Shown here piece after piece: positions 806 to 63,876 of a stretch of DNA of 64,000 nt. Origin of the DNA: a virus (Duplodnaviria; Caudoviricetes); IMG/VR virus record IMGVR_UViG_3300011335_000487, positions 1,701 to 65,700 of that record; one strand, given 5' to 3'. The notes below the pieces were generated by a model that was not told the DNA's origin, did not search any database, and saw nothing but the letters and a program-made list of their open reading frames with translations. Positions within the stretch are counted from its first letter, which is position 1; each line of letters starts with the position of its first letter. A program made the translations under genes and the position numbers.

Positions 806-825
806 GTTGATTCCTTGGTGAGTTG

Positions 826-1616: not shown

Positions 1617-1695
1617 TTGAAACTCCAAAACAAAATGCCAAGCAATGTGGCTCGGCTCACAGGACAGGCAATCAATCTACCCAATCCATAGAACT

Positions 1696-1704
1696 ATTAT
1701 AGCA
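1696..1704 (-). promoter_or_regulatory. Extended -10 sigma70-type early promoter (TGCTATAAT)
   Basis: Perfect TGn-TATAAT upstream of gene 1158-1616; -35 position occupied by AGGACAGGG repeats. Confidence 0.7.
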
Positions 1705-1906
1705 TTTGGAATTATCAGGACAGGGTAGGACAGGGCAGGATACGAACCCCACCCACCCCCCACCAAGGCTTATAGGGCACGACATACCCTATACCCGAGA
1801 ACACTATTCCCCAACCACACTTTAATTTTCTGTCAAACTTTGTATAACCCTCTAAATTTTGTAAAAAATCTAACCGACTCTTGTCAAACATTTGACACGT
1901 ACAGAC

Positions 1907-1937
1907 AAAAAAAGCCCCCGAACGTGAGTACGAGGGC
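1907..1937 (-). terminator. Intrinsic terminator of the putative sRNA
   Basis: GCCCUCG...CGGGGGC stem followed by UUUUUUU on - strand. Confidence 0.75.
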
Positions 1938-1981
1938 CAAGAATTTCCCACCAAGGAAATTGTCACTAAGGAGTAAGCAAC
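1907..1981 (-). ncRNA. Putative ~75-nt three-hairpin antisense sRNA targeting early-gene RBS leaders
   Basis: Extended -10 TGATACACT at 1988-1996; hairpin 1 loop UACUCCUU; hairpin 2 loop UUGGUG; terminal GC hairpin plus U7. Confidence 0.6.
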
Positions 1982-1987
1982 GCCCCC

Positions 1988-2020
1988 AGTGTATCAAAAA
2001 ATAAAAAAACAAGATATACT
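1988..2020. promoter_or_regulatory. Back-to-back -10 elements: TGATACACT (-, sRNA) and TATACT (+, putative late promoter)
   Basis: Two divergent -10-like hexamers separated by an A-tract; neither has a good -35. Confidence 0.45.
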
Positions 2021-2098: not shown

Positions 2099-2680
2099 GT
2101 GCTGTTAGATCACTTGGTTAGCGCGAATGCCGCAGACTATGTACCGGAGATTGAACCCGGTGTGCCCAGCTTTACGCCCTTAGAAAAACTTGACGCCGCG
2201 CAAACACTCAACGCGCAGCTCAACACAGCCGACTGGCTGCGTAAAGTCACCGGCAACGATGACGAGATCATCACCAAAACCCAAGAGACCAAAGCAGTCA
2301 ACGCATTTGCTGCGCTGACGACGAGCTCGCCCGATACCAAGAACCAGTTATTGAACATGCAGGTGCCCGAAGAGATTCGTGCGACCATTGCGATGGTAAG
2401 CGCCTATCAGTGGAAGTTTATCGAGCAGGCTGAGAGCCTACGCAGCATGGCGCTGACCAAGATTGTGCAAGAAACCGAGCACCCCGACGCTAAAGTGCGA
2501 CTCAAAGCGCTAGAGATGCTGGGTAAAGTGACAGAAGTCGCCCTATTTACTGACCGAATTGAAGTCAAGAAAACGGAGATGACTGATGAAGAACTTGCTA
2601 GCAAGATTAAAGACAAACTTAGCCGATATATGGGCAAGGTTGACATCGTGGATGCCGAAGTTTTAAAAGAAGTAGTATGA
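2099..2680 (+). CDS. terS: Terminase small subunit (putative)
   Basis: Directly precedes and overlaps TerL; RLKALEMLGK and LFTDRIEV-type C-terminal motif typical of this position. Confidence 0.7.
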   Translation: MLLDHLVSANAADYVPEIEPGVPSFTPLEKLDAAQTLNAQLNTADWLRKVTGNDDEIITKTQETKAVNAFAALTTSSPDTKNQLLNMQVPEEIRATIAMVSAYQWKFIEQAESLRSMALTKIVQETEHPDAKVRLKALEMLGKVTEVALFTDRIEVKKTEMTDEELASKIKDKLSRYMGKVDIVDAEVLKEVV

Positions 2681-4206
2681 ATCTCGACTTCCTGACCCCA
2701 CAAGAGGCGCTAGCTGCACAGTTGGCCCTCAAACACATGAGTCGGGTAGAGAAGATTGCGTTTTTAGCTGAACTTGAAGAGCAAGATAGGCGGTTTGGGC
2801 TGAATAAGGCGCAGACTGACCCCATTGAGTTTGCCAAACGTGTGTATCCGGGGTTTAAGGTAGGGCCCCACCACAGAAAACTGGCAAAAATCTTCCAAGA
2901 TGTGGTGGACGGCAAGAAAAAACGCGTAATTATCAACATCGCGCCACGTATGGGTAAGTCTGAGTTCAGCTCCTACCTGTTCCCCGCGTACTTCTTGGGG
3001 CGTTACCCCGAGAAGAAGATCATTATGGCAACGCACACTGCCAGTTTGTCAGAAGACTTCGGTAGGCGCGTGCGTAATTTGCTTGAGAGCGAAGAGTATG
3101 GCGAGGTTTTTAGGGACACCGTGGTCGCCGATGATCAAAAAGCTGCTGGTAAATGGTCTACTGGTGCTGGTGGTCAGTACTACGCTGTTGGTGTGGGTGG
3201 CGCTCTTGCTGGTCGTGGCGCAGACCTCTTCGTAATTGACGACCCGCACTCTGAGCAGGACATGAAGGCTAACAGCCGACTGTCGTTTGATACAGCATGG
3301 AGCTGGTTCCAGACTGGCCCACTACAGCGACTGATGCCCAACGGGGCCATCATCATAATTATGACGCGCTGGAGTCTGTTGGACTTGACCGGCAGGCTGC
3401 TCGACTTTCAAATGCGCAACCCAGACGCGGACAACTGGGAGCTGGTGGAGCTGCCCGCCATACTGAACGAGGACACCGAGGACGAGAAGAGTCTCTGGCC
3501 AGAGCAGTGGCCACTCGACCAGTTGCGCGCCAAAAAGATGCAGTTGGACCCGAGGTTCTGGAACGCGCAGTACATGCAACAGCCGACCTCAGACACGAGT
3601 GCGGTGATATCCAGAAAAAGTTGGAAAGTGTGGGAGCCAGAGGACCCACCTACTTGTGAGTACGTGATACAGAGCTGGGACACGGCGTTTGAAACAACGA
3701 ACACAGCCGACTACAGCGCGTGCACAACGTGGGGTGTCTGGTACAACGAGGACGACGGAGGTAGCCCCAACTTGATATTGCTGGATGCGTTCAAGGACAG
3801 AATGGCGTTCCCCGAGCTCAAGGCCACCGCACTCAAGCACTACAAGGAGTGGACGCCAGATGCGTTCATCGTTGAGAAAAAGGCAGCGGGGGCACCACTC
3901 ATACAGGAGCTGCGGCGCATGGGCATCCCCGTGCAGGAGTTCAGCCCGAGTCGCGGTAACGACAAGCACGTCAGGTTAAACGCGGTGTCAGACTTGTTTG
4001 CGTCCGGTAAAGTGTGGGCACCCGACACGCGTTGGGCGCGCGAGGTCATCGAAGAGGTGGCGTCGTTCCCCGTGGGCGAGCACGACGATTATGTTGATAC
4101 GGTGTCACAAGCGCTGTTACGATACCGGCAGGGCGGGTTCATCAGTTTGAACAGCGATGAGCAAGACGATAAATACTTCAGGGCGCGCAGAGCCGCGTAC
4201 TATTAA
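2677..4206 (+). CDS. terL: Terminase large subunit
   Basis: APRMGKS Walker A, FVIDDPH Walker B, QSWDTA and HDDYVD RNase H-like nuclease motifs. Confidence 0.95.
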   Translation: MNLDFLTPQEALAAQLALKHMSRVEKIAFLAELEEQDRRFGLNKAQTDPIEFAKRVYPGFKVGPHHRKLAKIFQDVVDGKKKRVIINIAPRMGKSEFSSYLFPAYFLGRYPEKKIIMATHTASLSEDFGRRVRNLLESEEYGEVFRDTVVADDQKAAGKWSTGAGGQYYAVGVGGALAGRGADLFVIDDPHSEQDMKANSRLSFDTAWSWFQTGPLQRLMPNGAIIIIMTRWSLLDLTGRLLDFQMRNPDADNWELVELPAILNEDTEDEKSLWPEQWPLDQLRAKKMQLDPRFWNAQYMQQPTSDTSAVISRKSWKVWEPEDPPTCEYVIQSWDTAFETTNTADYSACTTWGVWYNEDDGGSPNLILLDAFKDRMAFPELKATALKHYKEWTPDAFIVEKKAAGAPLIQELRRMGIPVQEFSPSRGNDKHVRLNAVSDLFASGKVWAPDTRWAREVIEEVASFPVGEHDDYVDTVSQALLRYRQGGFISLNSDEQDDKYFRARRAAYY

Positions 4207-4215
4207 GGATAGATT

Positions 4216-6672
4216 ATGTCGATTGAGAAGTCACTATATCAAGCACCTGTGGGGCTATCAGCACTTGCAGAAGAGCCCGATCTTGAGATTGAGATCGAAG
4301 ACCCTGAGTCGGTAACTATCAGATCAGGCGAGACTGAGATTGAGATTGAGCCGGGTGAGGTTGACAATGAGTTCAATGAGAACTTGGCCGATGTGTTGGA
4401 TGAAGGCGACGTTTTGTCGTTGGCCAGTGACTTGGCAGGTGACATTGAGAATGACCTAGCCAGCCGTAAAGACTGGGAGAAGATGTACAAGGACGGCATT
4501 ACGTTGCTGGGCTTAAAGTTTGAGGAAAGAACAGAGCCGTGGGACGGCGCGTGCGGCGTGTTTCACCCGATGATTACCGAAGCCGTGGTGCGGTTCCAGT
4601 CTGAGACCATCATGGAGACATTCCCCGCCAAGGGGCCTGTGCGCACTAACATCGTCGGTAAAGAGACGCCCGAGAAAAAAGAAGCCGCCTCGCGCATCGA
4701 GGAGGACATGAACTGGCAGTTGACTGAGAAGATGCCCGAGTTTCGTCTTGAGCACGAGAAGATGCTGTGGAACCTGCCAAGCGCGGGCTCTGCTTTTAAA
4801 AAGGTGTACTACGATCCGAGCCTTGAGCGCCAAGTGTCGGTGTTTGTCCCAGCAGAAGACGTTATCCTGCCATACGGCACGAGTGACCTGAAAACAAGTT
4901 ACCGTATTACGCACCGCATGCGTAAAAGCAAGAATGACTTAGTTAAGCTCATGCACGCCGGGTTCTACCGAGAGGTGGAGTTAGGCGAGCCCGCCAAGTA
5001 TCTGTCTGATATTCAAGACAAAAAAGACAAAGAGACTGGGTTCTCGGCAAGCTACGACGACAGGTTCGAGCTCTACGAGGTGCACGCCGATTTAGATTTG
5101 CCGGGGTTTGAAGACGCAGATGACGAAGGGCCAACAGGCATCGCACTCCCGTACGTGGTGACAATGATTCGCGGCACGAACGACGTGCTGGCCATCCGCC
5201 GTAACTGGAAGGAAGAAGATGACCTCCAGCTCAAGCGTGACCACTTCGTGCATTACCAGTACATCCCCGGCTACGGCGCGTACGGCTTCGGGTTATTTCA
5301 CCTAATCGGTGGTTTTGCCAAGTCAGCGACCAGCATCATGCGCCAGTTGGTTGACGCAGGCACCCTGAGTAACTTGCCGGGCGGCTTAAAAGCGCGTGGT
5401 TTGCGCATCAAGGGTGACGACACACCAATAGCTCCGGGTGAGTTCCGAGACGTAGACTTGGGCTCAGGCAACATCCGCGACAACATCTTGCCACTCCCAT
5501 ACAAAGAGCCGTCGGCAGTGCTTGCTGCGCTGATGGACAAGATCGTCGACGAAGGGCGCAGATTTGCCGCCACCGCTGACTTAAAGATCAGTGACATGTC
5601 CAACCAAGCACCGGTTGGCAGTACGTTGGCTATCTTAGAGCGCACCCTCAAGGTGATGTCGGCAGTTCAAGCGCGTGTGCACTATGCGTTCAAGCAAGAG
5701 CTGCAGTTGTTAGCGGGCATCATCCGCGACTACACGCCGGTGGACTACGAGTATGAGCCAGAAGACGGTAGCCGTAACATTAAGCAGGACGACTACCATA
5801 ACGTCGAGGTTGTACCAGTCAGTGATCCTAACGCTGCAACCATGTCACAACGTGTTGTGCAGTATCAGGCTGTCATTCAGTTAGCCGCGAGCGCACCACA
5901 GATATACAACCTGCCGATGCTGCACAGACAGATGCTCGACGTGCTGGGTATCAAGCACGCTGACAAGCTCGTGCCGCTGGAGGAAGATCAGAAGCCGACA
6001 GACCCAGTAACCGAGAACATGAACACGCTGATGGGTAAGCCCGTCAAAGCGTTCCTGTACCAAGACCACGAGTCACACATTAAAGTGCACATGGCGGCAA
6101 TGCAGGACCCGACTGTTCAACAACTTGTTGGCCAGAACCCACAGGCACAGATGATCATGGGCGCGATGCAGGCGCACATTGCCGAGCACGTTGGTTACGC
6201 TTACCGCCAGAAGATCGAGCAAGCGTTAGGTGTGTCGTTGCCTAACCCAGAAGACGAGTTGCCACCGCAGATGGAGAAAGAAATTAGCCGCCTGATGGCA
6301 GAGGCAGCACCACAGGTCTTGGCACAGAGTCAGGCACTGCAGGCGCAGCAACAAGCTCAGCGGAACGCACAAGACCCAGTCTTGCAAATGCAGATGCAGG
6401 AGCTGCAGATCAAACAAGGTGAGCTCGACCTCAAGAAACAGAAATTATCGGTTGACGCGGCGGCTAAAGCAGACGAGTTGCGTCTCAAAGAAACCGAGAT
6501 TCAGAACAAGAGCCAGCTTGAGGGCACGCGCATTGGGGCGGACTCCGCTAAAACCCGTCTGCAGCTTGATGCTAAAAACCAGCTTGATGGGCTACGCATT
6601 GGGAGCGACATCGCACACAAACGCGCGCTATTAGCAGCACAGAAAAACAACCCACCTAAAGGAAACAAATAA
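4216..6672 (+). CDS. Portal protein (P22-like, long Q-rich coiled-coil barrel)
   Basis: 818 aa right after TerL; GSAFKKVYYD motif; Q-rich C-terminal helix. Confidence 0.9.
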   Translation: MSIEKSLYQAPVGLSALAEEPDLEIEIEDPESVTIRSGETEIEIEPGEVDNEFNENLADVLDEGDVLSLASDLAGDIENDLASRKDWEKMYKDGITLLGLKFEERTEPWDGACGVFHPMITEAVVRFQSETIMETFPAKGPVRTNIVGKETPEKKEAASRIEEDMNWQLTEKMPEFRLEHEKMLWNLPSAGSAFKKVYYDPSLERQVSVFVPAEDVILPYGTSDLKTSYRITHRMRKSKNDLVKLMHAGFYREVELGEPAKYLSDIQDKKDKETGFSASYDDRFELYEVHADLDLPGFEDADDEGPTGIALPYVVTMIRGTNDVLAIRRNWKEEDDLQLKRDHFVHYQYIPGYGAYGFGLFHLIGGFAKSATSIMRQLVDAGTLSNLPGGLKARGLRIKGDDTPIAPGEFRDVDLGSGNIRDNILPLPYKEPSAVLAALMDKIVDEGRRFAATADLKISDMSNQAPVGSTLAILERTLKVMSAVQARVHYAFKQELQLLAGIIRDYTPVDYEYEPEDGSRNIKQDDYHNVEVVPVSDPNAATMSQRVVQYQAVIQLAASAPQIYNLPMLHRQMLDVLGIKHADKLVPLEEDQKPTDPVTENMNTLMGKPVKAFLYQDHESHIKVHMAAMQDPTVQQLVGQNPQAQMIMGAMQAHIAEHVGYAYRQKIEQALGVSLPNPEDELPPQMEKEISRLMAEAAPQVLAQSQALQAQQQAQRNAQDPVLQMQMQELQIKQGELDLKKQKLSVDAAAKADELRLKETEIQNKSQLEGTRIGADSAKTRLQLDAKNQLDGLRIGSDIAHKRALLAAQKNNPPKGNK

Positions 6673-45822: not shown

Positions 45823-45846
45823 TTTTAAATCTCCTTGGTGTCAAAT

Positions 45847-48240: not shown

Positions 48241-48261
48241 ATCATTTCCTTGGTGGGTTGA

Positions 48262-56906: not shown

Positions 56907-56928
56907 AATATATCCTTGATGGGTTAGT

Positions 56929-57801: not shown

Positions 57802-57829
57802 AGTATTTCCTTTAAGTGGTGGGATAACA

Positions 57830-57854
57830 GGTTGTAGAGAACACCTCTACAACC
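57830..57854. promoter_or_regulatory. Palindrome copy with compensatory change (GGTTGTAGAG-N5-CTCTACAACC)
   Basis: 10-bp perfect arms, intergenic. Confidence 0.65.
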
Positions 57855-59135: not shown

Positions 59136-59156
59136 TTAGTGCTCCTTGGTGGTTGA

Positions 59157-60278: not shown

Positions 60279-60321
60279 AGTATTTCCTTGGTTAGGTACT
60301 GCTTGGTGGGTACTGTTAAGA

Positions 60322-60350
60322 ATTATACATCAACATTACAACAATAACAA
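60322..60350 (-). promoter_or_regulatory. Sigma70-like promoter of the AAA/vWA operon
   Basis: TTGTTA-17 nt-TATAAT. Confidence 0.7.
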
Positions 60351-61388: not shown

Positions 61389-61411
61389 AGCGTTTCCTTG
61401 GTGGGTTGATA

Positions 61412-61436
61412 CGTTGTGGAGGGAGTCTCCACAACG
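61412..61436. promoter_or_regulatory. Palindrome CGTTGTGGAG-N5-CTCCACAACG
   Basis: 10-bp perfect arms just upstream of the RBS leader. Confidence 0.7.
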
Positions 61437-63053: not shown

Positions 63054-63057
63054 GTCA

Positions 63058-63258
63058 CTACTCCTTATCGGTTTGTTTTGATTTAATACGCTCGACATTG
63101 TCAATGAAGAACTCTGTGTTGAGGTCATCGAGGGGCTTATCCCAGTCCCACAACTCTGCCGCTAGCGCGTCCCTCTTCGCCTCGTCCATGTTGGCTGCCT
63201 CGAACGTAACGTGTTGAGATACACGCATCACAATGATGGCTTCAAACTTAGGCATCAC
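63058..63258 (-). CDS. Small early protein
   Basis: ORF track. Confidence 0.7.
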   Translation of the reverse strand: MMPKFEAIIVMRVSQHVTFEAANMDEAKRDALAAELWDWDKPLDDLNTEFFIDNVERIKSKQTDKE

Positions 63259-63449: not shown

Positions 63450-63460
63450 GTCACTACTCC

Positions 63461-63550
63461 TTATCTATACAAATGTTTGAACAACCTACCCCACACACCA
63501 CCGCCGCGCTTAACCGTAGTCTTGCGCTTCAATCTTTTCTCAACACTCAT
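63461..63550 (-). CDS. 29-aa basic micro-ORF
   Basis: MSVEKRLKRKTTVKRGGGVWGRLFKHLYR; fills the gap, stop is part of the next RBS. Confidence 0.5.
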   Translation of the reverse strand: MSVEKRLKRKTTVKRGGGVWGRLFKHLYR

Positions 63551-63797: not shown

Positions 63798-63801
63798 GTC
63801 A

Positions 63802-63876
63802 CTACTCCTTAAATAAAATAACGAACACTACGAACTTGACTACTACGAACCCAACGACTGCCGCTACTATGTCCAT
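63802..63876 (-). CDS. 24-aa hydrophobic micro-ORF
   Basis: MDIVAAVVGFVVVKFVVFVILFKE; AAGGAG RBS; ends in junction motif. Confidence 0.55.
   Translation of the reverse strand: MDIVAAVVGFVVVKFVVFVILFKE

Follow-up and report, generated by a model that had tools for sequence, protein, structure and literature searches.

The stretch of DNA analysed here (the window, 64,000 nucleotides) was taken from an IMG/VR virus record of 65.7 kb (bases 1701-65700), which has terminal repeats of 127 bp and a GC content of 49.5%. Late genes occupy the plus strand from 2099 to 40891, a block that contains a 2611-aa ORF; replication and early genes lie on the minus strand, in one stretch running from ~63800 to 41053 and another from 1616 to beyond the start of the window, the two joining across the record ends. 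The divergent control region (1628-2099) harbors the locus described here, a candidate sRNA gene. The source is an uncultured freshwater phage of lytic type, in which no lysogeny genes were noticed. Its closest cultured phages by TerL are the Pelagibacter phages HTVC027P and HTVC023P and the lake phage DSL-LC04, at only ~50% identity, and a Megablast search of the first 6 kb of the window against 50,697 phage records returned no match. The gene order upstream of TerL differs in HTVC027P and DSL-LC04, where no unit comparable to the sRNA locus was found. The features of the control region and of the adjacent terminase genes are the following:

1988-1996, minus strand: sRNA promoter, an extended -10 box (TGATACACT) of the TGnTAnnnT type with a T-rich tract upstream
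1907-1981, minus strand: candidate sRNA, ~75 nt from the +1 to the end of the U tract, based on its fold, its strand asymmetry and positional homologues in 71 relatives
1962-1981, minus strand: hairpin 1 (from the fold), with a 6-bp stem including two G-U pairs
1968-1975, minus strand: 8-nt loop of hairpin 1 (UACUCCUU), CU motif 1
1942-1961, minus strand: hairpin 2 (from the fold), with a stem of 7-8 bp
1947-1960, minus strand: CU motif 2 (AUUUCCUUGGUGGG), formed by the 5' arm of hairpin 2, its loop and the start of its 3' arm
1907-1938, minus strand: intrinsic terminator, a GC-rich hairpin followed by U7
1747-1768, minus strand: G-rich element that starts with CCUUGGUGGG of motif 2 (10 nt) and continues as G runs
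1696-1704, minus strand: main early promoter, an extended -10 box (TGCTATAAT) conserved in relatives
start at 2099, plus strand: presumed small terminase
2677-4206, plus strand: TerL

The minus-strand anatomy put forward in the preliminary description (an extended -10, a +1 at ~1981, two hairpins and a terminator, with no ORF) is present in the sequence in all its parts. The predicted +1 is G1981, 7 nt downstream of TGATACACT. The sRNA folds with an MFE of -26.8 kcal/mol (z = -3.66), a stability that none of 200 shuffles equals. The plus-strand fold of the same locus is weaker (-17.6 kcal/mol) and loses hairpin 1, because the G-U pairs turn into A-C. Neither an AUG nor an SD was found within the sRNA, from 1981 to 1907, and the locus displays the generic make-up of a trans-encoded sRNA gene: its own promoter and a Rho-independent terminator, without an ORF. 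To note, a consensus promoter/terminator scan missed both the sRNA promoter, which lacks a -35, and the terminator, whose 10-nt loop exceeds the 8-nt limit of the tool; the limitation is that of the tool. Relative L005 has a terminator loop with 14 inserted nt, which rules out an overlapping 83-aa frame. A plus-strand RNA (with CsrA-sponge-like GGA loops) and small plus-strand ORFs were likewise rejected, given the polarity of promoter and terminator, the G-U pairs and the weaker plus-strand fold.

The conservation of the unit was analyzed in the best 80 of 596 confirmed TerL relatives from IMG/VR. Each of the 71 relatives with sufficient upstream DNA has it, always at the same position and in the same, divergent orientation with respect to the terminase genes; these relatives display TerL identities of 79-99% and represent 52 distinct unit sequences. 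The unit comprises a promoter, a 5' hairpin that begins at the predicted +1, one or two additional CU-rich segments and a strong terminator. The promoter has a TGnTATA(A/C)T-type box, whose distance to the 5' hairpin is unchanged. The terminator is present in the 52 distinct sequences, with 7-10 GC-rich pairs and 6-11 U, and its stem sequences differ. In most relatives, the stem of hairpin 1 measures 7-11 bp and its loop ~14-20 nt; the core of this majority loop, CUCCUUCGUUUGG, is nearly invariant, and the stems vary freely. Covariation was measured on this majority form (model R1). When the covariance model was realigned on all loci, 95.2% of the cells were paired, as compared to 17-52% in slid controls, and double-sided changes were observed in six of nine pairs (33 cells), a result matched by none of 500 shuffles; although this alignment had been fitted to the model, compensatory changes can also be read directly from the raw sequences. 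G-U pairs make up about 15% of the paired cells, and this assigns the hairpin to the minus strand. Between the window and its sister clade L008, four stem pairs of hairpin 1 differ, and pairing is retained at all of them. That 1907-1996 (minus strand) is a real, conserved non-coding unit with its own promoter and terminator is therefore supported at the level of sequence.

The window's own clade has departed from the majority form: its loop is shortened and motif 2 is folded into a second hairpin. Model R1 gives 38 minus-strand matches in relatives and does not match the short-loop form of the window at E<=1. The proposed assignment of the window's RNA to the family rests on its position, its collinear parts and the intermediate forms L008 and L012. 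In viral contigs, a 29-nt gapped pattern matched the window's clade and the L008 clade only (8 contigs); a 14-mer scan of the same type of contigs was swamped by chance matches. The 17-mer of the majority loop gave at least 120 matches in bacterial genomes, spread across unrelated taxa, for ~140 expected by chance (an estimate from the size of the collection), and is thus uninformative as to the host.

At least one CU-rich anti-SD motif is found in the 52 distinct sRNA sequences and at least two in 42 of them, amounting to 1.83 motifs per RNA as compared to 0.17 in shuffles (~10x). Their predicted probability of being unpaired is 0.77, versus 0.41 at the other positions of the 52 sequences. 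Conserved, accessible seeds are a feature of the family, with the window's own motif 2 lying partly in a stem. The second CU seed is single-stranded in most relatives; that of the window is mostly stem-buried and its opening would cost ~12 kcal/mol. Loop 1 of the window, for its part, exceeds a generic SD complement by 3 nt only. In several relatives (L027, L036, L037, L043, L061, L066, L067 and others), a conserved block, GAUUAGUACAUCC, is located between hairpin 1 and the terminator, and is often trailed by a third CU motif.

Motif 2 is the perfect complement, over 14, 13, 11 or 10 nt, of a stereotyped leader, CCCACCAAGGAAAU, found before 8-10 minus-strand genes (class B below). A second type of leader (class A) is complementary to loop 1:

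48244-48257, minus strand: class-B leader, perfectly complementary to motif 2 over 14 nt and located 3 nt before the ATG of a 150-aa gene; net -10.2 kcal/mol
61393-61405, minus strand: class-B leader, 13 nt, 327-aa gene; net -11.1 kcal/mol
60282-60292, minus strand: class-B leader, 11 nt, 373-aa ATPase gene (phrog_1297)
59143-59152, minus strand: class-B leader, 10 nt, 423-aa DUF2201/VWA-like gene
57805-57823, minus strand: split class-B-like leader (CCCACC...AAAGGAAAU), 290-aa gene
56911-56923, minus strand: class-B leader with one G-U pair, 134-aa gene
45832-45840, minus strand: class-B leader, 9 nt, 134-aa gene
811-820, minus strand: class-B leader, 10 nt, small gene
63054-63067, 63450-63463 and 63798-63811, minus strand: class-A leader UAAGGAGUAGUGAC in three copies, with 9 contiguous pairs to loop 1

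The leader matches previously listed from the sequence all exist at their sites, and the claim that exposed CU segments of the RNA are complementary to the RBS leaders of minus-strand early and middle genes holds beyond shuffles. Allowing one mismatch at most, CCACCAAGGA occurs in 16 copies, versus 3.2 +/- 1.7 in shuffles, none of 100 reaching 16; outside the control region, 13 of its 14 copies are on the minus strand, almost always just upstream of a start codon. Across both strands of the whole genome, the exact complements of the 44-nt sRNA body measure 14, 13 and 11 nt, plus seven of 10 nt. Since chance alone should give an RNA of 44 nt about four 10-nt matches in this genome, it is the 13-14-nt matches and the RBS position that carry the signal: six of the ten longest complements (14, 13, 11, 10, 10 and 10 nt, the three longest included) end 3-8 nt before minus-strand start codons. 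Over 64 start regions, the top-8 mean duplex energy is -25.8 kcal/mol, as compared to -21.5 +/- 1.5 for shuffles preserving both CU cores, none of 200 being as good; bases outside the generic anti-SD therefore contribute. In the same type of scan, minus-strand leaders bind better than plus-strand leaders (p=0.0025). The complementarity nevertheless follows in part from the fact that any CU motif will meet any SD.

The two classes of leaders are not equivalent in predicted energy. The best class-B sites (48240, 61388 and 59135) retain a net -10 to -11 kcal/mol after opening costs, as compared to -3.5 to -4.8 kcal/mol for the class-A sites. The proposal that loop 1 reads the class-A leaders is borne out as far as its 9 contiguous pairs at three leaders are concerned (AAGGAGTAGTGAC has three occurrences, at 63054, 63450 and 63798); to extend further, the pairing needs one bulge and two G-U pairs, and its low net energy makes it thermodynamically marginal in these predictions. 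Among the predicted targets are the ATPase and the DUF2201/VWA-like protein, the other genes being without known family. The leader of the small terminase, inspected by eye in the window and in relatives, exhibits no contiguous complementarity to the sRNA. An alternative role of the extended leader, pairing with the 3' end of 16S rRNA, was set aside on what we take to be the general character of 16S 3' tails.

Other elements were observed around these leaders. A 9-bp hairpin or palindrome (GUUGUGGAG..CUCCACAAC) is located 5-15 nt upstream of three class-B leaders, at 826-846, 61413-61435 and 57831-57853 (minus strand). Its third copy displays a compensatory change from G-C to A-U, and the element is not followed by a U tract; it might serve RNA processing or stability, or act as an operator, and mark the starts of middle units. 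A promoter-like sequence, TTGATGTATAAT, lies at 60322-60333 (minus strand) inside the minus-strand gene array, and the leader that follows it, before the ATPase gene, carries both CCCACCAAG and ACCAAGGAAAU. A single plus-strand gene, a 68-aa late gene located after an 818-aa gene, has a class-B-like leader (CCCACCUAAAGGAAAC, 6651-6666).

Do the seeds and leaders vary together? To address this, seven whole or large genomes of relatives were added to that of the window, with genes in the relatives called by a crude script. In the window, the sRNA sequence UCCUUGGUGG faces the leader CCACCAAGGA (likewise AUUUCCUUGG and CCAAGGAAAU). The sister clade L008/L010 combines GUAGUUCCUUGG in the sRNA with leaders CCAAGGAACUAC, over 14 nt. 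Relative G005 harbors two different seeds, each with its own leader class (15, 12 and 12 nt for one, 12 and 11 nt for the other), and G008 pairs the seed UUUUCCUUUAG with the leader CUAAAGGAAAA (16, 12, 11 and 10 nt). Matches of 16 nt and 14 nt are found in L065 and L022, respectively, where the base beside the SD core differs in step with the loops. In relative L349, a C-to-U change turns the orthologue of the 811-820 leader into a complement of motif 1. Permutation of cognate versus non-cognate combinations yields p=0.0017 for 8 genomes and p=0.011 for 26 sRNA types, on relatives that are not phylogenetically independent; the window ranks 1st of the 26, and the own-leader rank falls in the lower half for 10 of them. 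The co-variation of loops and leaders that was suggested as a check is therefore observed in several lineages and is not general: in G002, G003 and G004, extended matches to the phage's own leaders are few or absent. The predicted pairing with these leaders is well supported by the sequence comparisons in some lineages, that of the window included. As the loop is nearly invariant even in G002-G004, where the leaders are not stereotyped, selection must come from more than the phage leaders, host mRNAs or a protein partner being possible sources.

Taken as a whole, the RNA probably throttles the translation of the phage's own early and middle genes. The host RNA polymerase would transcribe it from the extended -10, the intrinsic terminator ending the transcript. 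The RNA would then present two CU-rich anti-SD seeds, one in the loop of the 5' hairpin and one in the 5' arm and loop of hairpin 2, which would base-pair in trans with translation-initiation regions, the best sites in the window's phage being the CCCACCAAGGAAAU-type leaders of 8-10 early and middle minus-strand genes. At hairpin 2, the loop would presumably make the first contact (UUGGUG with CACCAA), after which strand displacement would extend the duplex. By covering the SD and its flanking bases, the pairing would compete with the 30S subunit and decrease the translation of the gene set. We infer that the RNA accumulates, that it binds the leaders in vivo and that repression is the effect. 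The chances that the locus is, as a whole, such a trans-acting, multi-target anti-RBS sRNA gene, lowering translation through seeds paired to early and middle leaders, appear to us about even.

The moment at which this control might operate is best approached through the promoter. The only intergenic extended -10 boxes of the window are those of the sRNA and of the main early promoter, and both belong to the same host-type class; synthesis of the sRNA therefore probably begins at the onset of infection. As the sRNA promoter looks as early as that of its proposed targets, a simple switch-off between early and late stages does not follow readily, and the RNA may exert threshold or dosage control, or act as an accumulation-driven switch, rather than as a late-induced one. 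Of the timed translational off-switch initially proposed, the complementarity to RBS leaders, a predicted one, stands; with an early-type promoter, the timing can only be a matter of inference. A bolder and more tentative version, which we would not expect to hold, is that a clade of freshwater phages possesses an RNA counterpart of T4 RegA: an immediate-early sRNA whose seeds co-evolve with “address” sequences in the RBSs of chosen early and middle genes and which sets the translational timing or dosage of these genes via an sRNA threshold.

Several other readings have to be weighed against an sRNA directed at the phage's own leaders. The anti-SD sRNA may be real and act mainly on host mRNAs, for host takeover or metabolic reprogramming, possibly by mimicking CU-rich sRNAs of the host; in that case, the phage-leader matches would be of secondary importance or have been added in particular lineages. 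The hairpin-1 loop that stays nearly invariant where phage leaders are not stereotyped, the immediate-early host type of the promoter and the weak full-length resemblance to betaproteobacterial and Neisseria CU-rich sRNAs (anti-hemB, NmsRb, tsRNA) all point in this direction, as does the slower growth caused by overexpression of one such sRNA, ncS27 (PMC5688073). We nonetheless regard it as unlikely, since the seeds differ between lineages in step with the phage leaders, which would be needless for a purely host-directed RNA, and since the Rfam scores are far below the gathering thresholds. The near invariance of a ~14-20-nt loop atop covarying stems is also typical of loops recognized by proteins or ligands; together with a U-rich spacer followed by the terminator and U tract, resembling an Hfq module, and with the relatives devoid of extended targets, it could designate the pyrimidine-rich loop as a site or decoy for S1, Hfq or a phage translational regulator. 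This we judge quite improbable: the window's clade has cut the loop from ~14-20 to 8 nt and kept only the CUCCUU core, which fits a pairing seed better, and each RNA harbors two or three different CU motifs, each with a matching leader class.

Two further explanations dispense with a function of the RNA in trans. In the divergent control region, the unit and the presumed late promoter stand back-to-back, and further early promoter-like elements lie just downstream, so that the transcript might be a by-product of a promoter and terminator acting in cis, as an early/late insulator, an origin-priming or R-loop transcript, or a read-through leader for the early operon. Such a role has little probability in our view, as it leaves unexplained the compensatory changes in the hairpin, the invariant CU loops and the co-variation of seeds and leaders, and the terminators are strong (7-10 GC-rich pairs, 6-11 U). 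Finally, CCCACCAAGG was considered as a double-stranded DNA site for a regulator protein, of which the sRNA would merely contain one copy. Copies do exist in both orientations in the control region (plus strand, 1759-1768 and 1947-1956), the former being the extra plus-strand copy already pointed out in the preliminary description and found to be real, and others lie upstream of many genes. The exact pre-gene copies are, however, a few bases before the start codon with AAGGA as the SD, which is an arrangement of the mRNA level; the coding strand carries 13 of the 14 copies found outside the control region; and the motif, which sits in an RNA loop or single strand, changes along with the sRNA seed in relatives. 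A DNA site is accordingly very hard to credit.

The initial impression that the RNA belongs to no described family agrees with Rfam, of which no model reaches its gathering threshold anywhere in the window. Below threshold, anti-hemB (RF02837) scores 20.5/25.6 bits (GA 49.5), the toxic sRNA (RF02278) 14.6/18.2 bits (GA 50) and NmsRb (RF02877) 22.1 bits (GA 52). The sRNAs of these families, namely the Burkholderia double-hairpin or toxic sRNAs, anti-hemB/ncS04 and Neisseria NmsR, resemble the phage sRNA in being ~60-100 nt long with two or three hairpins, the last a terminator. CU-rich sRNAs of the Burkholderia type carry two CU-rich unpaired stretches complementary to the RBS regions of many mRNAs, and 55-80% of their predicted interactions fall at start sites (PMC5688073); compared with that description, the phage sRNA exhibits the same design of two CU stretches and two or three hairpins. 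Its full-length alignments to RF02278, RF02837 and RF02877 are weak (14-26 bits), and it is not a member of them. Moreover, it is encoded by a lytic-type phage, whereas the betaproteobacterial CU-rich sRNAs are chromosomal, and its seeds, unlike theirs, extend past the SD into a phage-specific leader.

A conserved loop motif on stems that vary by compensation is also shared with the cuckoo RNAs of Alphaproteobacteria (CcsR/RSs0680, alpha-r14), modular hairpins in which only the anti-SD-like loop motif is conserved and stem mutations are compensatory (PMC4615179). Their loop motif is CCUCCUCCC, as compared to CUCCUUCGUUUGG or UCCUUGGUGGG in the phages; they are chromosomal or plasmid-borne and often clustered, and no sequence relationship to the phage sRNA was found. 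Known phage sRNAs are mostly prophage-derived with host targets, or single-target immunity RNAs such as c4, sar and OOP; c4 of P1/P7 and sar of P22 have loops that pair around the RBS of the target and block its translation (PMC12197685). By analogy, c4 would be the closest of the phage RNAs, although it controls a single operon (antirepressor, ant) of a temperate phage and is the basis of heteroimmunity, whereas the phage sRNA has its own promoter and terminator and many candidate targets dispersed over ~20 kb. The c4 model (RF01695) is absent from the permissive Rfam matches to the sRNA, even at E<=10. With respect to function, T4 RegA competes with the ribosome at the initiation regions of ~30 early and middle mRNAs (PMC3014915). 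It is a functional analogue only, being a 122-aa protein that binds A+U-rich sites, whereas the factor proposed here is an RNA that would recognize its sites by base-pairing.

If correct, the interpretation would extend the temporal control of phage translation by a mechanism based on RNA and directed at the phage's own early and middle genes, a role previously assigned to proteins such as RegA. Should the counterpart of RegA be confirmed, anti-RBS riboregulators would represent a common layer of phage gene control that has yet to be described. The seed and leader variants of more than 50 sequence types form a natural set of compensatory mutants, so that reporters in a surrogate host would allow the idea to be tested directly.

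The control region harbors other conserved elements. The G-rich element at 1747-1768 has G-tracts at the equivalent place in relatives, and may form a G-quadruplex or provide early transcripts with a second anti-leader segment. Two TTGACA-containing elements (1802-1836 and 1882-1897, minus strand), located in the interval from the sRNA terminator to the early promoter, are conserved across relatives, one being the inverted repeat TGTCAAA..TTTGACA and the other ending in GGAATAGTG; they do not fit a sigma-70 -10 and may be middle promoters or regulator sites. A terminator-like hairpin followed by a U-rich run (1637-1656, minus strand), also conserved in relatives, directly precedes the SD of the first early gene on its 5' side and may be an attenuator or a 5' stabiliser. 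Absent from the window is a perfect palindrome (GAGTACAC..GTGTACTC) found at the small-terminase start of L022, L025, L027, L039, L061 and others; located between the sRNA promoter and the terminase genes and followed by T5-6, it may be a late-promoter operator.
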